Source of the DNA: an uncultured Chloroflexia bacterium | GTDB lineage: Bacteria > Chloroflexota > Limnocylindria > Limnocylindrales > CSP1-4 | Assembly (NCBI GenBank): GCA_963752475.1 | Contig: CAVVYR010000007.1 | Location: 288,001 to 352,000 of the forward strand | Reading direction: 5' to 3' | DNA length: 64,000 nucleotides | In this document: positions 24,447 through 36,595 of the stretch, in pieces | Numbering within the stretch: the stretch's first letter is position 1 | Layout: every line of letters starts with the position of its first letter | Translations under genes and position numbers: made by a program | The notes under the pieces: model-generated | The model's database searches: none | Told to the model about the DNA's origin: nothing | Seen by the model: the letters and a program-made list of their open reading frames with translations, nothing else

Positions 24447-24523
<77 letters not shown>

Positions 24524-24525
24524 CC

Positions 24526-24571
24526 GTGACCCAAGAACGAAGGCGGAGTCGATGACGGCTCCGCTTTCGTG
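24526..24571 (+). terminator. tRNA-Val intrinsic terminator; left copy of a 46-nt direct repeat
   Basis: GGCGGAGTCG-ATGA-CGGCTCCGCT-TTCGT hairpin; near-identical copy at 40877-40922. Confidence 0.75.
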
Positions 24572-24722
24572 TTGCGGGCGTATGGGCGGCCACCGACGCC
24601 ACCATCGACAGCACCTGACAGCGGAATCGGAAAAGACTCCTCGACTCAACCCCTCGTGCACATAGAGGTCGGTGCCGCGTGCTTCACTAGCACGGACGCA
24701 GGCCGGACGGAACGGGAGGGGT

Positions 24723-25283
24723 ATGGATCCGGAGGTCGTGGTGCGAGCGCAACACGGGGACGAGGCCGCATTCGAGTCGATCACCGTCGCCGCCTACCCG
24801 CGGCTCTATCGCATCGCCCACGGCATCCTGCGCGAGCATGGTGCCGCCGATGATGCCGCCCAGACCGCGCTCGTCGATATCTGGCGCCGGCTCCCGCGCC
24901 TGCGTGACCCCGAGAGGTTCGACGGCTGGTCCTACCGGCTGCTCGTGCGCATCTGCTACGCCGAGGTCAAGCGCCGGCCGAAATGGCTGCCCGACGAAGC
25001 CATCACGCGCTCGAACGAGCCTCGCGCCGCCGATCCTTTCGGCGCCGTGCTCGACCAGGACCAACTGGAGCGAGCGTTCGGCGCCCTGAGCGTGGACCAT
25101 CGCGCGGTCATCGTCCTGCGCTACCTGCTGGACCTGCCCCTCGAGCAGGTGGCCCAGGCGCTCGACATCCCGGTCGGCACGGTCGGCTCGCGGCTCCATC
25201 GTGCGCTCGAGGTCCTGCGCGCGAGCGTCGAGGCCGGCGACCGCACTGAGCCCTTGCACGCCGAGTCGGAGGGACGCTCATGA
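24723..25283 (+). CDS. ECF-type RNA polymerase sigma factor
   Basis: Region 2 DDAAQTALVDIWRRLPRLRDPERFDGW; region 4 LSVDHRAVIVLRY...VAQALDIPVGTVGSRLHRA; GGAGG RBS. Confidence 0.93.
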   Translation: MDPEVVVRAQHGDEAAFESITVAAYPRLYRIAHGILREHGAADDAAQTALVDIWRRLPRLRDPERFDGWSYRLLVRICYAEVKRRPKWLPDEAITRSNEPRAADPFGAVLDQDQLERAFGALSVDHRAVIVLRYLLDLPLEQVAQALDIPVGTVGSRLHRALEVLRASVEAGDRTEPLHAESEGRS

Positions 25284-27928
25284 ACGACGAGCAGTTCACC
25301 CCGGTCATCCAGTCCTGGCTGCGCTCGAATGACACCGTGCCGCCCGAGCCGCTCGAGCGCACTGACCGCGTGATGGCCCGCGTCCGTTCCACGCGTCAAC
25401 TCGGGCGCCACTGGCCGCCGGAGGCCCTCGTCCCGGAGGTCGAGCCGACCACGGACGGCCCAGGACTCGGCGTCCACCCCGCTCGAGACCGACAAGTCCA
25501 CTGGCTGCCGAGTCGGTTCTCGATCGTCATCGCGATGCTTGCTGCGCTGGTCGTGCTACTGACCGCCAACCTGCTCCTGCTCGACCCGGCGCGGACCGAG
25601 CAGCGCGGTGTCGCCCCACTCCCGGGAGCCGAGGAGTCCGCCGAGCCGAGCAAGGCCATCAGCTGGATCACCGAGCCGGTCAGCCTCGAGGCGGACGCGC
25701 TACGGCTCCACGTCGGCGACATCGTCGTGACAGCTGTGGCCGAAGCGTCCGTCGAGGGCTCCGGAGACCAGGCTCGCCAGCGAGAGCTGGCAGTCGACTG
25801 GCAAGAGAACGACACGTGGCAGCACCTGCAGCTGTACCTCGCCGCGGACGACACGCACTGGTGGATCAGCGAGCTCTTCACCAGCCATGGCACCGAAGCC
25901 ACCAGCACGGTCACCTTCGATACCACGCGCCTGCCTCGGACCACGATCGGAAGCGCGTTGACCACGGATCTCCGACTCACCGGGACGCCGGACGGCGACA
26001 GCGCCCAGACCGGACCCGTCGAGCTGGAGATCGATGGGCTGGTGCTTCGAGCGTTCGAGCCCGGCACCGGTGTCGACCGCGTGGCCACGGAAGTCGGACG
26101 TGTGACCGCGACCGGCGATACCGTCGGCCCAGGGGTACTGCGTGTCGTCGACGACGGCACGAGTCATGGCCTCGAGAGCGTGTTGCACGTCGCCGTGACC
26201 CCCGACGGGCGCGCTTGGGCGGCCACGACCACCCACATCTACGAGCTGGGCGTCGAGGGCGGCTTGCGCGCGATCGACGGTGGGCCGCGTACGATCGAGG
26301 GGCTGGCTGCAGGGGCGGACGATCGCCTGCTTCTGCCCGCGGACGGTGGCGGGTGGCTGCCGACGGATGGCCACTCGTGGCTCGAGTCGGCGTGGTCGGG
26401 ATCGGCGTCCTTCGACGAGGCCGTGATCAGCGCGGACGGTTCGCTCTGGGGCGTCACGAGCGAAGCCGGAGAGATGTTCGGACGGATCGATGCCCTGGGC
26501 ACGATGACGACCAGCGGCATGGCGCTCGCTGATGGGTCGCCCGTCGACCTCGAGGACGGTGCAGCCGCGGGGTCGATCGTGGCCCTCGCGGACGGTTCGG
26601 TCTGGGTCGCGACCGGCCCTGGAGGCGCCATCAGGCGATTCGATGGCGAGGACCGGGGCGCGATCGATGAGATGCACGAACCGTTCGGAACGTATGAGGC
26701 CGGGCAGCATGTCCTCGATCTTGCCGCCAGCACGAACGGGGTGGTCTGGGCCCTGCTCGAGGACCACGCCGGGCAGTATCTCGGGCGTTTCGACGGCACG
26801 ACGTGGTCCCTGCACGTCTGGGACGACGTGGTTGCCGGGTTGCCCGACGATGCCCAGCGGTCATGGGCCTTCCCGGATGGCATCGCCGCTGTGCTCTCCG
26901 ATGGCGCCGTGCTGGTCGCTCCCGTCGACGTCTACGCTGACACGGGCTCCTCGGGGTTGCTCCGCTACGACGGCCGTGCCTCGAGGGTGGCGGCCGATGT
27001 CGCGTTCGACGACTTCGCGGCAACGCCCGATGGGCGGGTGTGGGCCGCGGGTTGGTCAGGCCTGCATCTGCTCGACCCGACCGCGTGGCCCGAGGCGGCG
27101 GGTCCGGTCACGGCCGATGACCAGGTCCCTCCCGGACGAGTGGTGCTCGACCTGCGGCCCAGCCGCCGGCTCGAGCAGGTCGTGGCGTATCTCCAGCGCC
27201 AGAGCGAACAGACCGACCTCGGGCTCGACCCCGAGGCCTTCCTCCGACTCGCCCGCGACCCGGGCGACCACTGGCGTGAGCAGTACCCGTTCCTGAAGGA
27301 AGCCCCGGAGGGCAGCAGCCTGGAGGGTTTCCTCGCCTCCGGCACGTACGAGGGACCGTCGGACATCGCCGCCGAGGACCTCGTCGCGCGGATGCTCGAG
27401 GAGTGGGACGAACGGATGTCGCCGTACGTCGCGGAGGCGGAGCGGAGAGGTATCGACTTCTACGATGCGCTCATCGTCGCCAGTCTCGTCGAGCGGCAGG
27501 CCCGCGACGACGCCGACCGTGCGAGGATCGCCGGCGTCTACTGGAACCGGCTCGACCCCGACGTCTACGGCGATCAGACCGGCGGCCTCCTGAACGCCGA
27601 CCCGGCCGTGGTCTACGCGACCGACTCGATGGCGCTCGAGGATCTGCCGGTCGAGGACTGGGACGGCTATCGCTTCTGGGACCTGCTCGGGATCGATGAC
27701 TACAGCGTCGTCGAGGTCGACCCCGAGTACGCGTCCTTCCAGACGTATCGCACGAAGGGGCTGCCCGAGTGGCCCATCGTGACCCCGGGCGCAGCCTCGA
27801 TGGCGGCAGCGCTGGATCCGGATACCGGCGACGGCAGCCTCTTCTTCTTCGCTTGTCCGGGCTCGACCACGCACGTGTTCGCCCAGACCTTCGACGAGCA
27901 CCTCGAGAACATCGAGCGATGCGACTGA
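25280..27928 (+). CDS. Membrane-anchored anti-sigma-like protein with extracytoplasmic beta-propeller region and C-terminal MltG/YceG-like domain (catalytic Glu appears as Gln)
   Basis: ATGA overlap with the sigma gene; short N-terminal domain plus one TM; xxDGxxW repeats; MltG motifs LEGFL..GTY, ASLVERQ, IAGVYWNRL, LNADPAVVY, TY..KGLP..PI..PG, HVFAQTFDEH. Confidence 0.8.
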   Translation: MNDEQFTPVIQSWLRSNDTVPPEPLERTDRVMARVRSTRQLGRHWPPEALVPEVEPTTDGPGLGVHPARDRQVHWLPSRFSIVIAMLAALVVLLTANLLLLDPARTEQRGVAPLPGAEESAEPSKAISWITEPVSLEADALRLHVGDIVVTAVAEASVEGSGDQARQRELAVDWQENDTWQHLQLYLAADDTHWWISELFTSHGTEATSTVTFDTTRLPRTTIGSALTTDLRLTGTPDGDSAQTGPVELEIDGLVLRAFEPGTGVDRVATEVGRVTATGDTVGPGVLRVVDDGTSHGLESVLHVAVTPDGRAWAATTTHIYELGVEGGLRAIDGGPRTIEGLAAGADDRLLLPADGGGWLPTDGHSWLESAWSGSASFDEAVISADGSLWGVTSEAGEMFGRIDALGTMTTSGMALADGSPVDLEDGAAAGSIVALADGSVWVATGPGGAIRRFDGEDRGAIDEMHEPFGTYEAGQHVLDLAASTNGVVWALLEDHAGQYLGRFDGTTWSLHVWDDVVAGLPDDAQRSWAFPDGIAAVLSDGAVLVAPVDVYADTGSSGLLRYDGRASRVAADVAFDDFAATPDGRVWAAGWSGLHLLDPTAWPEAAGPVTADDQVPPGRVVLDLRPSRRLEQVVAYLQRQSEQTDLGLDPEAFLRLARDPGDHWREQYPFLKEAPEGSSLEGFLASGTYEGPSDIAAEDLVARMLEEWDERMSPYVAEAERRGIDFYDALIVASLVERQARDDADRARIAGVYWNRLDPDVYGDQTGGLLNADPAVVYATDSMALEDLPVEDWDGYRFWDLLGIDDYSVVEVDPEYASFQTYRTKGLPEWPIVTPGAASMAAALDPDTGDGSLFFFACPGSTTHVFAQTFDEHLENIERCD

Positions 27929-29208
27929 TCGCGGCGCTGGCGATCTGCCTGGTGCTGTCGTCGGCCGCCGCCACGCAGGCGGCAGGCTCGGAGGACGCGC
28001 GCTACACCTGGACGGAGTTGAGTCGAGCGACGCACGAGGCACACCGGACCAGGTCGGGACTGCCCGGTGCCGGGCAGTTGGGATCAGCCTGGGTCGATGT
28101 CGAGAAGAACCGGGTCGGCCTGCGTTTCGAGCGCGGCGCCCTCGAGCGGGCTGACTTGGCGTCGGCTGAACGCAAGTGGGAGCGGGCGCTGGGTGTGCCG
28201 GTCTACATCTGGCGCGAGGAGATCGTGCCGTCGATACCGCGCGCCGGAGCGTGGGTGAAGCTGCCCGACGCTCCGTGGGGTGCAGCCAACGCCGTCGCGG
28301 TCGCCATCGATGGGGACATGCTCGTGCTCGACCGTGAGACTGGGCGGGTCCTGCGGTTCGATCCGGAAAGGAACACCTGGATGCGCGGCGCCCGTGCGCC
28401 GAAGCCATTCCGGTCGTACGGCGCGTCGATCGGGACCGGCAGCGAGCTGATCCTGCCGCACACGAAGGACGCCAGTCGGATCGCGACGTACGACCCCACT
28501 GCTGACAGGTGGCGTACGCGCAAGCTCCCGCCATCACCGCTTTCGGGTCCTGACGCCGTGGTCTGGGCCGACGGGCGGTTGGTCGTGGCGGACATCGAGA
28601 CCGAGAGCGAGGTCGACATCGAACGGTCCCTCGCCCTACTGGACCTCGATACCGGCGAGTGGACCGAGCTGCCGGCACCCGAGGCCCCGAGCCAGCTCGT
28701 CGGCCTGCATTGGACCGGATCAGTCATCCTGGCCGTGACGACGGACGAGTACGAAGACCTCGTCCAGGTCACTGTCCTTGACCTCGACGACCGCGAATGG
28801 AGCGAACCCCTCACCGGGCCTCTGAGCTGGTGGTATCGGCACGGGGTCTGGATCGGTGACCGGCTCCTCTTCACGGGCGGCGGCGATCATGGGCCGAGTG
28901 ACGCCTCGTTCGACCCGGTCACGATGACTTGGACGGAGGAGGACTACGTCTGCCCCGTCGGTACACGCGAGGCGATCTGGACTGGCGAGCTCCTCGTCAG
29001 CGAGTCGAGCCGCTACTCGCTCGACCCTGACACTGGCACCTGCTATCGCTTCACCGGGCGCGATCGCACGATGAACTCCAACGCCGTCGTCTGGACCGGC
29101 GATCGCGTCATCTACTGGTCCGGCGGTGGCGCGGAGGAGGGGCAACCGGACCCATACCGCCACAACGGCCACGCCTTCGTGTTCTTCGACGAAGAGGTCC
29201 AGGGATGA
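27919..29208 (+). CDS. Secreted Kelch-like beta-propeller protein with N-terminal alpha-lytic-protease prodomain-like segment
   Basis: Signal peptide MRLIAALAICLVLSSAAATQA; repeats FDPERNTW, YDPTADRW, VWTG/HWTG/IWTG. Confidence 0.75.
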   Translation: MRLIAALAICLVLSSAAATQAAGSEDARYTWTELSRATHEAHRTRSGLPGAGQLGSAWVDVEKNRVGLRFERGALERADLASAERKWERALGVPVYIWREEIVPSIPRAGAWVKLPDAPWGAANAVAVAIDGDMLVLDRETGRVLRFDPERNTWMRGARAPKPFRSYGASIGTGSELILPHTKDASRIATYDPTADRWRTRKLPPSPLSGPDAVVWADGRLVVADIETESEVDIERSLALLDLDTGEWTELPAPEAPSQLVGLHWTGSVILAVTTDEYEDLVQVTVLDLDDREWSEPLTGPLSWWYRHGVWIGDRLLFTGGGDHGPSDASFDPVTMTWTEEDYVCPVGTREAIWTGELLVSESSRYSLDPDTGTCYRFTGRDRTMNSNAVVWTGDRVIYWSGGGAEEGQPDPYRHNGHAFVFFDEEVQG

Positions 29209-29306: not shown

Positions 29307-31506
29307 ATGGCTCGCGTGATCGGCGCCCGAGCTCGGCCGTGGATCGCATCGATCGCGATGGTCCTGTGCCTGGCGACAGTGAACGCTCTGATGTCGCCGC
29401 CGATCGTGGCCAAGGCTCCGGTGGACACAGATGAGCTAACACTCGACTACAGGGGCTGGGATGGCCGCATCACACGGCCGCTCGGCTACTGGTGGGAGCA
29501 GGGATCCGGAGGTGAGTGGTGGGTCGAACGCGCCAACCTCCGCCCGGACGGTCGCCTCACGCTGCACCTGGCGATCGATCCGATCGAAACGACCGTGCCT
29601 CTCGACCCTGGACCCGCGGTCCTCTTCGCATCTGCCCACCTGTCCGGCGACGGCGGCAGCGTCGGCCTCGGGGCGCGAGTCGGCAAGCCAGTGCACGTGA
29701 CCACACGTCCTTGTCGAGGCTCACAGCGATGCGAGATGCGTGCGAACGTCGTGCTTCCGACGCACCGGCTGGAGTCGGCCGCTGCCGGCGTTCGACATCC
29801 GGCCACTTGGCATGCACTCGGCGTGAACCTGACACTCGTTCGCACCTTCGGCCAGGGGACGTGGGTCCAGGTGCTCCCGCTCGAGGGACGCGGGCTCACG
29901 GGACGCGTCGGTACGGTTTCGGACCCCGGCACGTTCAAGGCGCACACCCGCTACTTCGGTGCGTTCCCGCTCGAGCAGGGCGAGCGCTGGCTGGCGAACC
30001 TCCCTCGCGAGGTCCGGTACGAGCCGGTGCTTCGCATCACCGAGCGTATCCGGCAGAAGGGGGACGAGAGCCAGATTCCCGAAAGCGTCCCGTTCCAGCT
30101 CGACGTGGACGCGGGCGACTGCCTGGGCTGGAGCCTGATGAACGCCACTGGTGACATCGCCTTCGACGAGACCGAGCGGCTGTTCGGCCGGGAGGTGCGC
30201 ACGGTCGATGTGCCCGTCGGGTCGGAGTGGTACGTGCGCTCGCCGAGCCTCGAGAACCTCGACATGCCCTCCGAGACGGTCCATAGCTTCGGACCCTTCT
30301 CGGCGGATAGCGACGGTCTGCGGATCGAGGGTTCGTGGCGCTGCGGCGAAGTCAGCGGTGATGTGACGACGTCCGCGCTGGCGGCGCAAGTCGCGAGCGC
30401 AGCCGCATCACCGTACGTGTGCGAGGAACCTCGTGATCGGATCGTCGAGGAGCCGGGCGTCCTGGCGGGGGAGTGGTCGAGCATCGCGACCGCGCCGATC
30501 CCTGGGCGGCACTCCCACACGGTCACCTGGACCGGCGAAGAGGTCATCGTCTGGGGCGGCATCGAGACCGCCGAAGACGGCTCCACGAGCATGCCGGCCG
30601 ACGGCGCTGCCTATGACCCCGCAACCGATACGTGGCGACCGATCAGCGAGGCGCCGATCAGGGGCCGGATCGGGCACACGGCGGTGTGGACCGGTGATCA
30701 GCTCATCATCTTCGGTGGCCGACGAGGAGACCGGCTTCGGGGCGATGGTGCCGCGTACTTCCCGACAACGGACACATGGCGTCAGATCCCCACGCTCGAG
30801 AGCGGCCTCCGACGCCGCTCGCATCATGCCTTCTGGACGGGCAAGCAGATGCTCATCTGGAGCGGCATCGGGCCGAGCGGCAGTCGCTATTGGCGAGATG
30901 ACGTCATGCTCGCGTACGACCCTTCGACCGACGACTGGTACGGAGATCGGTCGCCACTGTTCCGGCGCTGGGGACCTGATGGCCTCGCCGGTGACGGGGA
31001 GTTCGTCTTCGCCGTCAGCTACGGCGGTGGCGAGCGGCCCGAGATGGCGGTCTACGAGGTCTCCACCGAGCAGTGGCATGCCATCGCCGAGCCTGGAATC
31101 TCTGGACGGGCCCCGGCGTCACCCATCTGGACCGGCGCTGAGCTGCTGCTCTTGCGCCCGAGTATCCGGCTCGGCGGGGATCGATCTGCCGGCGAGTGCC
31201 GCCTACGACCCATCCGGCTCGTGCTGGCGCAGCGTCTCAACAGCGATACCGACGCATTCCGTCGCCTCGGCACCGTCGTGGACCGGGGAGCTGGCGGTGT
31301 TCGCCGGTCGCGAAGGCTTGGCCTACGACCCTGACGCCGACCGATGGCTGGCGATGCCGGCAGACGATCGCGCGGCTCGCACCGAGACGCCGTTCGTGTG
31401 GGCAGGAGATCGCATCTTCGCCTGGGGTGGGGTGGACCCGGCCACCGGGGCCGTGCTCGAGGACGGCGTAACGTACCGAGTACCGCTGGAGGGCGAGCCC
31501 AGATGA
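29307..31506 (+). CDS. Secreted Kelch-repeat protein (one +1 frameshift near 31154)
   Basis: Signal peptide; TWTGEEVIVWGG, AAYDPATDTW, VWTGDQLIIFGG; continues in the +1 frame as AAYDPSG...FVWAGDRIFAWGG; span is 3n+1. Confidence 0.72.
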
Positions 31507-31561: not shown

Positions 31562-33587
31562 ATGAGAGCGCCACTCGCGATGGCTGCCGTCGTGGTGGTC
31601 CTACTTACCGGGATGATCGCCGAGGGTCAGCCTGCCGCCGCGGCAGAGTCCGAAGCCACCGATCTCAGACCCAACGCGGAGCGGCCGCTCACCCACGAGG
31701 AACTGCTGATGATCCGGGGTGAACGCGAGCGCTCCGCGACGTGGGGCTCCGCCATGCTCGTGGCCGAGACCGTCCTCGAACGCGACCGGCCGCTGCGCGG
31801 CGGCGACCAGTGGTCGGGTGAGGGTCCGGCGTTCGGCGCCTTGCCGCGCGACGAAGTCCACCCGGGAGATCCGCTCGTACTGGCTTCCAGGACCGTGACC
31901 GCACGGCTCCCGGCCGACGACGGTCCCGTCCGCGGCCTCCTCGCTATCTCCGACAGCCGGTCCGACGCGTTGCGCTTGCAGGGCACCGTCGAGATGCCTG
32001 CTGGCACATATCTCACCCCCGTCGAGACGTCGGCCATCGCCGACGCCGACGCCTTGCCCGGCGGGGCCCTCATCGTGGTCCGAGGGTGGCTCTCCAGTCT
32101 TCCATCGAGCGAGGCCTGCCCGGAAGTCCCCAGCGCGCTCGACCCGCACGACACCGGTGGTCGTGACTCGCCCTTCGTGCGCTGTCCCGGCGGCTGGCTG
32201 ACCGCCGGCGAGGTGGTCGAGCTCGACCCCGACGACCCGACCAGTCCGCTCGCCTTCGGCATCCCGGTCCAATCCGGCGCGCTCGAGCGGTATGGGCGTC
32301 AGAAGGACGAGCAGCCGGTCCCGGGGCCGGCGAGTTTCCTGCTGCGCCACGTGGTGAACCCGATCGACGGTGCCACCTCGGCACGCGCGTGGCTGGTCAT
32401 CGGGCGCCTCGGGCCGATCAACGTCCCGGACGTCACCCCGCCGGCCGATCGTGCCGACATCGCCCGCCCGGGCGGGCTCGACTGGCAGCCGGGCATGGAC
32501 CGGCAACCGCCGGCCGACGGCTGGTCGCTCGACTCGACGGCCTGGGACGGCGGTTTCGCATCGGTCCATCTGGGTCGCGACCGCGTGATGTCGTCGTGGG
32601 TCTCGTCCGACGGCCGCAGCTGGGAAGGCACCGAGCTGCCGACCGGCATCGCGACGGTCTCGGCGCTGCTGCCGCTACGTGATGGCCTCGTGCTCATCGC
32701 CAACGAGCTGCGCTTCGACGAGCCCTGGACCTACGAGGTCTGGGAGATCCTCCGACGGCCTGTCCTGGCGTCGCGTGTCGCGCCAGCGGGTCCCGCAGCC
32801 GGACCGCTTCGACGGCTACCGGCGGAACGTCCAGGGCTTCTGGTCATTGGGCGACCGGATCGTGGCGCTCGCGACGTACACGACCACACCTTGCTGTGGC
32901 CGATCGTCCGGTTGGACCGTCGTCGCGAACGACCGACGCGCGTCCGACGTCACCTTCGCCTGGACCAGCTCGAACGGCAAGCGCTGGAAGCGGCAGCGCA
33001 CGCGAGGCATTCCCAAGGACACGGTGGACTCGTTCGGTTATCTCGTCACCCAGGGCGACGGCGAACTGCTCGGGCGCTGGGGCGGGGCGGACCGGACGAT
33101 CGGGCGCACGACCGACGGGGCCCGCTGGCGGACGATCGGCGCTCTTCCCGACGGGTTCGACGTCTACTCGCCGTCACTGCTGGTCCGGACCGATGACGGC
33201 TTCGTGCTCGGTGACCGCGTCGAGGTGGAGGGACGCGCACGGGCACGCATGACCCTCTGGCGAAGTAGCGACGCGGAGCGATGGCAGCAGACGTTCGCAC
33301 GGTTCGGCGGCCGAGCCACGTCGATCGTGTCGAGCGGCAGCTCGGTCATCGTCGCCGGCAACGACGGCTACTCGCGTGGCACGGGCCACGAGCTCCCGTG
33401 GCTGCTGGTCTCGGACGACGGCGGCCGGACGTGGGACGAGAACGACACCTGGGTCGGTGACTCCGAGTGGTGCTTCGAGTCGCTCACCGCCAACGGTCCG
33501 ACCGTGACGCTCGACGCTGCCTGTGCCACGCCGGATGCAGCCTCGACATACGTGACCACGCTCGAGACCCAGGCCGGGGGTACCTGA
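31562..33587 (+). CDS. Secreted BNR/Asp-box (SxDGxxW) repeat protein (one +1 frameshift near 32743)
   Basis: Signal peptide; SSDGRSW, then +1 frame SSDGLSW, SSNGKRW, TTDGARW, SDDGGRTW. Confidence 0.72.
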
Positions 33588-33589
33588 GG

Positions 33590-35072
33590 ATGGCGGTTCG
33601 TTCGATGGACAGACCCCTCCACTCGGGCGTGCTGCGCTCGGTGGCCGTGGTGCTCGCCCTCGTCACGCTCAGCGCATACGCGTCGATGGGGGCCGCCGGA
33701 GCCGATGCCGATGAGATACCGGCCTGGCGCGGCCGCTGGAACACCGAGGCCGAGCTCACGATCGAGCCGCGGACCGACGGATCCGTGGCGGTGGCAGCCG
33801 GCACCCCACATGGCGTGGTGGTGTGGGGCGGAGTCGCGCAGGACGGGCGGCTCTTGAACGATGGCCTGCTCATCGACTCGGCCGACCCATCCCACTGGCG
33901 GGTCATGCCCGAGTCCCCGCTCGCCCCGCGCCGCGACTACGGTTGGGCCTCGGTCGGCGACCGCGTCCTCGTCTGGGGCGGCGTCGACGAGGACGGTCGA
34001 CCACTCGATGACGGGGCGCTGTTCCAGCACGGCTGGATGTCGCTGCCACAGAGCCGAATGCCGGGCGGCCCAGCTTCGATGGCCGTCGCGGACTATCGAC
34101 TGTGGGTCGTCGCGACGGACCCTGACACCGGGCTCGCCAAGATCGAATCCATGGGCGTGGGTATCGAGGACGGCGCGAGCTGGGGCCTGGTGGCGGACGT
34201 GCCGCTGCCTTCGGGTGAGCGCTACGAGGTCGCCGGCTGCTGTGGCGACGAGGTCAACGAGCTCATCGTCTTCAGCATCATGCCCGATGGCTCCGCGGTG
34301 GCTGCGAGCTGGAACATCGGCGCCGCCCGGGCTCCCGACTTCATCGGCGGGGAGTGGACGCAGCTGGGCACGATCCCGGCTCCGGTCGGCGCGCCGGTCG
34401 TGGGTCGCGCCATCGAACAGCAGCTCGCGGCATGGGTGAGCCCCGTGGACCCCGCACCGGCGGACGCCGGCGATGGATCGGTCGCGGTCCTGCGGCAGGT
34501 CGGCTACGGCCAAGAGGAGCAATGGCGAACCGCGCCGTCGCCGGGTCGGCTCGGCGTCGCCTCGGGCCTGGTGCTCTCGCCGCGGCACCTCATCAGCCTC
34601 AGCGACCGGGCCGTCTACGATCTCGCCGACGAGCGCTGGCTACGGCTGCCCGAGCTCCACCGCCGGGCGAGCTTCGCCACGCCGACCGGTGCGGCGACGT
34701 GGTGGGATCGTGGCCGGCTCTGGGTCCTCGGCGGCGTGGCCCCCGACGGCACGATGCGCTCCGACTCTCCGCTCGTTCACGCCGCGGCTGCCCAAGGGCA
34801 CGTACACCCTGCCCATCGGCCCGATGCCGCTGTGGAAGACGGATGCGGGCACCTGCTACTACGTGGGCGAGCCGGGCACCTGGACGCTCCGGGGCGATCC
34901 CCGGTCCCGGCCGCGCGTGTGGATGCAGCAGGGCGCTCGCACCGAGCCGCTCCGGCTCCCCGATGGCTGGCACGCTCGGTTCGGACCGAAGCTCTCGATC
35001 ACCGACTCCACCGGCGCGGTGCGCTTCCGCGGAGGCGAGACGTGCGAGGGCAACACGGGTACCGGTGGATGA
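33590..35072 (+). CDS. Secreted Kelch-like protein with small C-terminal domain (one +1 frameshift near 34766)
   Basis: Signal peptide; VVVWGG...DGLLID, SPLAPR, VLVWGG...DGALF, YDLADERW, LWVLGG; tail in the +1 frame. Confidence 0.68.
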
Positions 35073-35193
35073 AGCACACACGGAAGCGCCTGAGACACCC
35101 GGACGACCCGGCTGGGAACCGGACGGTCACGTCGAGCGTCTCCCCAGGTTGCCCGAGGACGGAGTCCGTCGTGGTCCGCGAGGAGTCTGGCCC

Positions 35194-36595
35194 ATGACCG
35201 ACCGACGACGTATCGTCGCGGCTCTGTCCCTCGTCGCGTTGCTCGCGCTGCCGGCCGCTGTCATGGCCCAGTCGCCGTCGCCCTCGGACCCGGACGCCGG
35301 GTTCGTCGAGATCGTCGGGCCCGACCCACGCGGTCCTGCCCCGTCGCCACCGATCGGCCCAGCCTGGCAGGTCGGCCTCGAGCGCTCGTTCTGGAACGTG
35401 GGCGACGTCGACCTCGTCGCCTGCGAGGGTGGCTTCACGCTGCTGGGCTGCGTGCACGACAAGCTCGCCGGGCAACGGTACCGGTCGCGTGGACTCGTGT
35501 GGACCTCGTCCGATGGCTTCGAGTGGTCGCGTGCCGGGACCCTCCGACCGAGCAACGACCCCATCGAGGACGAGTGGGCGGTCTTCGACCTCGTGGAGTA
35601 CGGGGGTGAGCTTCTTGCGCTCGGTGCTGAGGGTCGGCGCCTCGTGGTGTGGCGTTCGCGCGACTGCGGCGAGACGTGGGGGCGCCTGCGCGACCGCCCG
35701 GTGTTCTCGGTCGGTCGGAAGGCCCTCTCGCTCGACTTCGTGCGTGGTGTGGCCACCGACGACACGTTGCTCGTGCTCGGGACCCAGGCCGGCGAGATGA
35801 TCCCGTACCGGCGGTGGGCCTGGACCCTCGACGAGCGCGGCTGGCGTCGCATCCGCGGTGGCCTCGAGGGCGTGGTCGACTTCGGCCTCGTCTCGGATGG
35901 CCGGCGGTTCCTGGCCAACCGCGAGGAACACATCTCCGGAGCCCGGCGGGCGGGCCGACTCATCACCTCGACAGACGGTCGCCGCTGGCAGGAGCTCGGC
36001 GTTCTTCCCGACGACAGCCGGTCGGTGGTCCCTGACCCTGTCCGTGATCGCGTGTTGGCCCAATCCAGTGTCTACGGCGATGGCTGGATCAGCCGCGAGT
36101 TCCAGGCCTCCACCGATGACGAGACATGGAGCCCCGCGGTTCGCGTGGCTCCTGCCCCCGAGGCACCCGTCGGGCACGCTCTTCGAGGTTGACGGCGCGC
36201 TGGTCTGGATCTTCGATGTGTGGGACGACACCGACAGCAACGCCTGGAGCTGGATCGCGCTCTCCGAGGACGGCGGCTCGACCTGGACCGTGAGCGTGGG
36301 CCACCCGGACATGCGACTGGCCGGGCTACGGTCGGTCGCGGCCACCGACGAGGCGATCGTCCTCGCCTTCACGGGCGAGGGCTTCGATGCCATCAAGACC
36401 TGGACCCTGCCGCGACATCTCGTGCCCACGGGGCGGATCAATGAGCGGTCCATCGGCCCCGACGCCTCCGATGACTGGGGGTTCGCCTGCCCGGTCGGCG
36501 ATGTCGTGCTCCTCCTCGTCGGCAGCGTCGCCGATCCGGCCACGATGCCGCGGCTGGTCCTTGAGGCGCTGCCCGGGGCCGCGAGCGAATCATGA
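35194..36595 (+). CDS. Secreted BNR/Asp-box repeat protein (one +1 frameshift near 36167)
   Basis: Signal peptide (VMA-Q); TSSDGFEW, RSRDCGETW, TSTDGRRW, STDDETW, then SEDGGSTW in the +1 frame. Confidence 0.7.

Follow-up and report, generated by a model that had tools for sequence, protein, structure and literature searches.

An ECF sigma factor and a membrane partner with an apparently inactive MltG domain: a candidate glycan-strand sensor

To our knowledge, the perception of peptidoglycan damage by envelope-stress sigma factors has been described for few systems, and the signal there is usually indirect. The locus reported here raises the question of whether such a sigma factor could be governed by the wall polymer itself, through a receptor copied from an enzyme that handles it. 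The locus lies in a stretch of 64,000 nucleotides (hereafter the window; assembly GCA_963752475.1, contig CAVVYR010000007.1, positions 288,001 to 352,000 of the forward strand) from an uncultured Chloroflexia bacterium, an organism known from metagenome assemblies only. In it, the gene for an extracytoplasmic function (ECF) sigma factor runs directly into a gene whose 882-residue product joins a short cytoplasmic head, one membrane helix, two beta-rich outer domains and, at the tip, a paralogue of the transglycosylase MltG with glutamine at the position of the catalytic glutamate. A first-pass annotation, made from the letters alone, had read this arrangement as a non-cutting MltG fold reused as a sensor on an anti-sigma factor. 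Our analysis supports this core interpretation, to which the origin of the domain by duplication, its conserved columns and its low ratio of nonsynonymous to synonymous substitution rates (dN/dS) add support.

Glutamine at the catalytic position of the MltG-like domain

The domain plan first drawn from the letters, in which a sigma gene overlaps a gene for an N-terminal domain, a transmembrane segment, a propeller and an MltG domain, was borne out by the open reading frames, by Pfam and by AlphaFold. In the full model of the 882-residue protein (45-row alignment, mean predicted local distance difference test score, pLDDT, of 80.2), two helices (residues 7-15 and 28-36) are followed by a disordered linker and then by a membrane helix (81-95); beyond it lie a beta domain (127-258), a propeller (267-598) and an MltG fold (620-882). 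A HMMER check for YceG/MltG had been recommended at the outset, and it gave a clear answer: residues 623-879 match PF02618 (YceG) with an E-value of 1.5e-39 and 136.6 bits against a cut-off of 32.4. Foldseek relates the same part to Listeria YceG (4iiw, E 1.2e-10) and to Acinetobacter MltG (8yq7, TM-score 0.76).

The HMMER alignment places Gln740 opposite the glutamate of the motifs IIEKEA, LLQREA and IVEKE in the solved chains 4iiw, 8yoa and 8yq7, and thereby confirms that the CAG codon noticed in the window stands at the catalytic position. The window and the orthologue from genome G014 have the codon CAG, and that from G022 has CAA. All four fused copies have glutamine here and lack the catalytic glutamate that marks the YceG/MltG family; among 36 homologues of the MltG part, glutamine occurs in three (P0001, P0002 and P0004), all orthologues of the fused gene, and glutamate in the remaining 33. 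The caution that a single wrong base could have produced the glutamine can thus be answered: a synonymous CAA/CAG difference cannot come from one read error at a glutamate codon, so Gln740 is not a read error, and none of the fused copies has glutamate. A 180-base contig of public run X1 covers positions 27346-27525 with 0 differences; this run holds parts of the stretch only (share 0.18), in short contigs, and may be the source sample itself, so that its independent support is weak.

What the substitution means for activity can be judged from Escherichia coli MltG, whose E218Q variant, used where an inactive enzyme is needed, yielded no anhydro product (accessible text of PMC8135044). Since E218Q inactivates the E. 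coli enzyme, it follows by analogy that the MltG-like domain should be catalytically inactive through its own change from glutamate to glutamine, and the disabling change would be of the same kind as the one made in the laboratory. It could be argued that Gln740 is tolerated, or that another residue takes over, leaving a working transglycosylase fusion; indeed, the conserved residues apart from 740 are intact. We consider this very improbable, given the E. coli result from the accessible text of that study, the invariance of the glutamate in 33 of 33 non-fused homologues, and the finding that, in the changed conserved columns, the four fused copies do not share any newly acquired acidic residue. 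Another motif, LNADPA, had at first been taken as a second sign of inactivity. The motif is present, as LLNADPA; the interpretation had to be dropped, as 10 of 10 outgroup MltGs that keep the glutamate read LLNADP, which is therefore a lineage trait.

The genome still has an intact canonical MltG (437 aa, motif VEREA), to which the MltG-like part (residues 586-881) is 57% identical. In a maximum-likelihood tree of 22 MltG catalytic parts (four fused, seven canonical ones of the genus, the metagenome protein P0003 and ten outgroups, with G021 and G008 left out because the motif filter selected no ORF in them), the four fused copies form one clade (100/100) with a long stem of 0.47 changes per column and short inner branches, and this clade is nested among the genus's own MltGs (96/94). 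By its place in the tree, the MltG-like domain arose within the genus as a duplicate of the housekeeping gene mltG. The columns conserved in at least 17 of 18 non-fused MltGs number 62, and 56 of them are kept in all four fused copies; of the other six, three lie at the N-terminal edge, two vary in some fused copies, and one is Glu740Gln, which alone changes uniformly within the core. Of the gene's parts, the MltG-like one has the lowest pairwise dN/dS (0.18-0.23; Nei-Gojobori, three pairs), compared with 0.20-0.27 for the head, 0.24-0.27 for the propeller and 0.30-0.63 for the membrane-proximal beta-prism. Read together, these substitution patterns describe a duplication, a burst of change that included the catalytic residue, and then purifying selection, as would be expected of a domain that has taken on a new, non-catalytic role. 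The protein P0003 (880 aa) is another kind of long MltG within the same clade: it covers the full YceG profile (positions 2-274), keeps the glutamate, has no anti-sigma head, and carries about 540 extra residues between a signal- or anchor-like start and the enzyme.

It also has to be asked whether the fusion or its glutamine could come from an assembly or sequencing error, or whether the gene is a pseudogene remnant. The genome of the window is a draft, its contamination put at 5.83%, and the fused gene has single-base frame breaks in two of the genomes that carry it: G022 has one insertion at about residue 762, and G014 has two TGA codons enclosed by a compensating pair at residues 222/254, as well as a single insertion at about residue 782. 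However, the architecture is common to four assemblies (the window, P0001, G014 and G022), so the fusion is not a misassembly; the glutamine is encoded by synonymous codons; the X1 contig is identical over the interval that contains it; and dN/dS past the break points is 0.16-0.32. Because G014 and G022 have frame breaks in their canonical mltG genes too (loci L004, L005, L032 and L033) and dN/dS is low after the breaks, we attribute the breaks to assembly noise, with real decay in these two copies possible, and reject them as evidence of decay. An artefact or a decaying gene is thus a hardly credible explanation of the locus.

A short head encoded next to ECF sigma genes

The sigma factor matches the Pfam families Sigma70_r2, Sigma70_r4_2 and Sigma70_ECF and passes the NCBIfam sigma70-ECF model TIGR02937 with 72 bits (cut-off 42.9); with this superfamily match and regions 2 and 4 only, it is an ECF (group 4) sigma factor. 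Its nearest NCBIfam subfamily is SigE-fam_strep, at a score of 115, under the cut-off of 141.55. The partner gene (25280..27928, forward strand) starts inside the sigma stop through an ATGA overlap, and the same overlap occurs in G014 and G022, where sigma factors with 92-93% identity occupy the same position.

The conserved part of the head comprises residues 1-48, two helices marked by W-L, a Pro-rich loop and the motif T-R-Q-x-G-R-x-W-P. This module is not confined to the fused gene. The window's genome (G000) has about 20 paralogues of the sigma factor, with 41-57% identity, at loci L015-L050 on contigs C4, C5, C6, C8, C14, C19, C25, C29 and C36. At 18 of the 20 paralogous sigma genes, the next gene stands at the same -3 overlap (ATGA) and encodes a matching head: the first ~50 residues of these partners align with it (W-L, Pro-rich loop, T-R-Q-x-R-W-W-P), and beyond them come one membrane helix and an outer part that varies. 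The outer parts of 17 such partners comprise, by Pfam, four of the beta-helix, NosD or pectinesterase type and three weak propeller-type matches, and ten have no match. A profile of the head found 275 proteins at E <= 1e-3 among 7999 scored. Among the 120 head matches listed, about 95 are of the beta-helix or pectinesterase type, five have a propeller of the DPP-IV/TolB type, one is a GH5 cellulase, and two carry PF02618, these being the orthologues P0001 and P0004; three of the same 120 have sigma-70 domains in the same gene call. The source annotations of the head-profile matches name no anti-sigma factor. An unannotated family of putative anti-sigma heads is thereby exposed, and the lineage may accordingly possess further ECF systems that sense glycans.

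Contact between the head and the sigma factor is predicted by complex modelling. The sigma factor with head residues 1-78, run with our own alignments and three controls, scored 0.79 (0.78-0.80 over the runs), and the best control scored 0.01; the mark used is reached by 58 of 80 solved complexes and by 2 of 110 mismatched pairs, counts that are approximate here since our own alignments were used. At least 75% of the contacts agree between runs, and the pLDDT of the partner is at least 62. The predicted contacts join partner residues 1-43 to sigma residues 10-59 (region 2) and 110-170 (region 4), and the best defined among them are those of head helix 2 with region 2. The earlier suggestion that the N-terminal residues bind the sigma factor has gained in this way from the model and from the recurrence of the head at paralogous sigma genes; on the same two grounds, we take the head as a predicted sigma-binding module and putative anti-sigma factor.

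Of the recognised kinds of anti-sigma domain, class I is a four-helix domain of about 100 amino acids, covered by Pfam zf-HC2 or RskA, and its zinc type carries Hx3Cx2C. The head is of a different make: it has no such Pfam match, no cysteine in residues 1-78, and two modelled helices. Its shape is closer to class II, represented by CnrY, with two helices in fewer than 50 residues, one membrane helix, and predicted contacts to both sigma regions, without a sequence link to that class. CnrY binds sigma region 4 with its first helix and region 2 with its second (accessible text of PMC7406223); thus the short cytoplasmic domain, modelled with two helices, the single membrane helix and an interface predicted to cover both regions are likenesses to CnrY as far as that text describes it. 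Unlike CnrY, which has a small periplasmic part, the protein studied here has about 780 outer residues, and the profile search of the Protein Data Bank (PDB) gave no sequence relationship between the two.

What the outer domains may perceive

We read the locus, with modest confidence, as an ECF sigma factor and a membrane anti-sigma partner in which the dead MltG domain serves as a sensor of glycan strands. The first ~48 residues of the head, folded as two short helices, would clamp sigma regions 2 and 4 and hold the sigma factor at the membrane, as the predicted complex and the repeated gene pairing lead us to infer. Outside the membrane, the protein would present a prism with a fold like that of the lysosome-associated membrane proteins (LAMP), then the beta-propeller, and the MltG paralogue at the tip. 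The substrate of MltG consists of nascent, poorly cross-linked strands; the dead domain would still bind peptidoglycan glycan strands without cutting them, and whether its groove is filled would signal the condition of the wall. When that filling changed, the anti-sigma factor would become accessible to degradation or shift in conformation, and the released sigma factor would turn on its own operon, including a secreted Kelch-like protein; release and operon control are pictured here by analogy with other membrane anti-sigma factors. In a more specific version, which we hold only tentatively, the dead MltG would be the direct receptor for nascent un-cross-linked strands, and an imbalance between polymerisation and cross-linking would be read into the ECF sigma factor.

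The two domains between the membrane and the tip offer another candidate for the sensor. Modelled alone, the beta-prism reaches a pLDDT of 92.7, and it has no match to any Pfam family. A wide structure search with VIA returned 4akm_B (LAMP-3; Z 13.7, rmsd 2.8, 125 aligned residues), 8ath_B (Z 12.9) and 6xbw_s (Z 12.6); the prism matches the luminal domains of LAMP-1, LAMP-2 and LAMP-3 and the V-ATPase subunit Ac45 at Z 12-13.7, and the next unrelated row stands at Z 5.8. A bacterial domain with a LAMP-like fold has thus come to light. Related modules occur in many proteins of 250-350 amino acids, the search with residues 85-600 giving 219 matches at E <= 1e-3, mostly to this part. For the propeller, the Foldseek matches are sensor domains from hybrid two-component systems of Bacteroides, propellers themselves (4a2l/4a2m, E ~1e-8), and the streptogramin B lyase 2qc5. 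The likeness to BT4663-type Bacteroides sensors, seen in these E-values and in a weak Reg_prop match, is at the level of the fold only: TM-scores are 0.13-0.29, and the output machinery is entirely different.

These domains allow an explanation in which the dead MltG domain only fastens the anti-sigma factor to glycan strands, and the propeller or the prism perceives the signal. Three observations speak for it: the propeller resembles ligand-binding propellers of glycan-sensing Bacteroides hybrid two-component sensors, the paralogous partners carry other outer domains (beta-helix types and propellers) and no MltG, and the prism module is common to many other partner-like proteins. On the other side, the MltG-like part is the most constrained portion of the protein, its dN/dS lying below those of the propeller and the prism; and it has lost almost none of its conserved residues, which exceeds what a mere tether seems to require, though the point is not decisive. 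We regard the anchor as unlikely, and that the MltG-like domain is the signal input instead of an anchor is itself what we infer from the balance of these observations.

The MltG-like domain also departs from the canonical enzyme in its extent. Its PF02618 match spans profile positions 71-274 of 275 only, in comparison with 1-274 for the canonical MltG of the genome; the first 70 positions, which we take to be the LysM-like lobe, are absent. Neither is this a full YceG domain anchored by its own N-terminal membrane helix, as the membrane helix belongs to the anti-sigma part, and the score against TIGR00247, the equivalog model of the endolytic transglycosylase MltG, is 68.5 bits, below the cut-off of 103.4. 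A further possibility is that the dead MltG docks on peptidoglycan synthases and reports the engagement of the synthesis machinery. According to the accessible text of PMC8135044, MltG associates with peptidoglycan synthases, and the inactive E218Q variant of E. coli MltG continues to reduce transpeptidase output by PBP1A and PBP1B in vitro. In the fused protein, though, the canonical membrane helix and juxtamembrane part of MltG have been replaced, and the domain sits about 500 residues away from the membrane; we regard docking on synthases as a rather improbable account.

Several points weigh against a glycan-strand sensor and its anti-sigma head. First, the absence of the first 70 YceG profile positions might weaken wall binding, and the prism or the propeller could be the real sensor in place of the MltG-like domain, the propeller with its resemblance to known ligand-binding propellers in particular. 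Second, no Pfam family covers the head, either in the 882-residue protein or in the 17 paralogous partners; a sequence-profile search of the PDB with the head (E <= 10) gave five chance-level rows and no anti-sigma factor; and, as solved ECF/anti-sigma complexes exist, the complex score may be partly a memory of them. Third, the full-length gene was found in 3 of the 41 relatives searched (G000, G022 and G014), and its first 600 residues in 2 of 401 genomes of the family (G022 lay outside that draw). Fourth, there are the frame breaks in G014 and G022, and the canonical MltG has a dN/dS of ~0.54, a rough value because of frame breaks. Finally, glycan-strand binding, the release of the sigma factor and its regulon are proposals.

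The operon, its range and related systems

The features of the locus are collected in Table 1.

Table 1. Features of the sigma operon in the window, in the order of their positions
Feature	Position	Strand	Basis
Hairpin and T-rich tail	24543..24572	+	By eye: GCGGAG...CTCCGC, then TTTCGTGTT
ECF-type promoter-like and leader motif	24629..24694	+	GGAAA 24629-33, CTCGTGC 24653-59, TAGAGG 24663-68, small hairpin 24678-94
ECF sigma factor, 186 aa, regions 2 and 4 only	24723..25283	+	Pfam, NCBIfam
Cytoplasmic head, aa 1-78, putative sigma-binding module	25280..25513	+	Alignment with paralogous partners, model, predicted complex
Single transmembrane helix, aa 80-101	25517..25582	+	Hydrophobic stretch FSIVIAMLAALVVLLTANLLLL; model helix 81-95
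Membrane-proximal beta-prism, aa 126-265, LAMP-domain-like fold	25655..26074	+	Model, structure search
Beta-propeller, aa 266-598	26075..27073	+	Model strand pattern, weak Reg_prop match
MltG-like domain, aa 594-882	27059..27925	+	PF02618, Foldseek, tree
Gln740 codon CAG, catalytic Glu position of MltG	27497..27499	+	HMMER alignment
Kelch-like protein, 429 aa, signal-peptide-like start	27919..29208	+	ORF and translation, weak Kelch Pfam matches

Upstream, the hairpin lies directly past tRNA-Val (24447-24523), between the upstream genes and the sigma gene; it probably ends the upstream unit and makes the sigma operon a transcription unit of its own. The terminator scan did not list it, as its loop is longer than the scan permits. 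That scan gave one site, within the second Kelch gene, and the sigma-70 promoter scan gave 0 sites; neither result is informative. When the 160 nt before the paralogous sigma genes were aligned by eye and with MAFFT, most of the 20 shared a pattern of (A/T)GGAAC, about 17 nt, a C.TAC-like element, TAGAGG or TGAGAG, and a GC hairpin. Its counterpart in the window could be an ECF promoter with a conserved 5' leader structure, which would fit autoregulation. Downstream, the Kelch-like gene overlaps the 3' end of the 882-residue gene and is a probable member of the operon: a homologue follows the fused gene in G014 (75% identity) and in G022 (73%), and the order sigma, fused gene, Kelch is kept. 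It opens a run of Kelch-type propeller genes after the fused gene (27919-29208, 29307-31334 and 33467-35197), and is the only one of the run that is syntenic in both orthologous loci.

The genes upstream in the window are ftsZ (named by eye from a motif), yggS, yggT and DUF167 (by Pfam), and the first-pass annotation had noted the position of the sigma operon next to this division and cell wall (dcw) cluster. A functional link to the cluster is not supported: within ~5 kb upstream, ftsZ, yggS and yggT occur in 0 of the 2 orthologous loci (G014 and G022), and because these genes are absent upstream in both, the dcw neighbourhood is incidental. Since the flanks differ between genomes, the sigma operon may be a cassette that has moved between sites. 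In two genomes, it lies about 200 nt 3' of a tRNA gene, tRNA-Val(CAC) in the window and tRNA-Arg(CCT) in G022 (L054 5143-5218); there is no tRNA gene at the G014 locus.

The fused gene is known from three species genomes and one further metagenome contig, and because it is found in so few relatives, it is young and narrow in range. The source annotations of the nearest MltG outgroups read 'Candidatus Limnocylindrales bacterium', which suggests that the lineage is the Limnocylindrales. A phylum-wide YceG scan matched 352 of 401 genomes; this tally includes the unpublished genomes G563, G460, G746, G589 and G639, covers the best 150 rows, and says little on other fusions. Five genomes with several YceG matches were re-examined and had no long fusion: in four, the matches are genes split by frame breaks or stops, and in one (G476) they are a tandem. 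The tandem, at G476:C50:13883-16387, consists of two YceG genes with open frames of 452 and 461 aa.

The closest precedent in design is RsgI6 of Clostridium thermocellum, whose GH10 module has very low activity, keeps its polysaccharide binding, and is 57% identical to the working xylanase Xyn10D of the same genome (accessible text of PMC4711584). Like RsgI6 as described there, the protein studied here is a single-pass membrane protein of anti-sigma type with an outer module derived from an enzyme of the same genome, and the identity is 57% in both cases. The differences are, however, substantial. The partner here is a true ECF sigma factor with region 4, and that of RsgI6 is sigma-I; the head has about 48 residues and no RsgI_N Pfam match, which places it outside the RsgI family; the donor enzyme acts on the cell's own peptidoglycan and not on a food polysaccharide; and the inactivation is a clean swap of a single catalytic residue. 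Against MltG/YceG itself (E. coli MltG and Listeria Lmo1499, 4iiw), the domain shares fold and family, and the genus's own mltG is its ancestor; unlike these enzymes, it has glutamine for glutamate, misses the first 70 profile positions, and sits at the end of a 600-residue protein of anti-sigma type. A third comparison is offered by RsiV, the partner of sigma-V in Bacillus subtilis, which binds the attacking enzyme. RsiV is degraded in the presence of lysozyme (accessible text of PMC6066255), and on that account both are ECF anti-sigma factors, putative in our case, tied to attack on the cell wall; unlike RsiV, the sensor here is an enzyme relic that would bind the wall polymer.

As to novelty, the first-pass annotation had stated that no anti-sigma-MltG fusion is described. 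Our literature search found none, and the subscription papers and ECF-classification supplements outside that search may hold this group; PMC11256431, considered as a possible description, was rejected, as its accessible text concerns a neighbouring gene only. The statement stands to that extent. It does not extend to the design principle, as a membrane anti-sigma factor with a barely active glycan enzyme from its own genome is already known from RsgI6-GH10 (accessible text of PMC4711584). What is new here is the peptidoglycan transglycosylase as donor, the clean catalytic swap, and the true ECF partner with a short unannotated head.

A candidate ligand is suggested by the sequence itself, as the sensor would have been copied from an enzyme that handles nascent glycan strands. 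This makes for a testable prediction, namely binding without cutting, coupled to the release of the sigma factor. If the proposal is true, the locus would provide the first case of an ECF system that takes the wall polymer itself as input, with a pseudo-transglycosylase doing the binding, and the relic of a strand-terminating enzyme would act as a trap for its own substrate. The system would also rest on a large unannotated family of short heads, mostly joined to domains that resemble carbohydrate enzymes, and bacterial wall biology would gain a naturally occurring case of a pseudoenzyme that has become a receptor.

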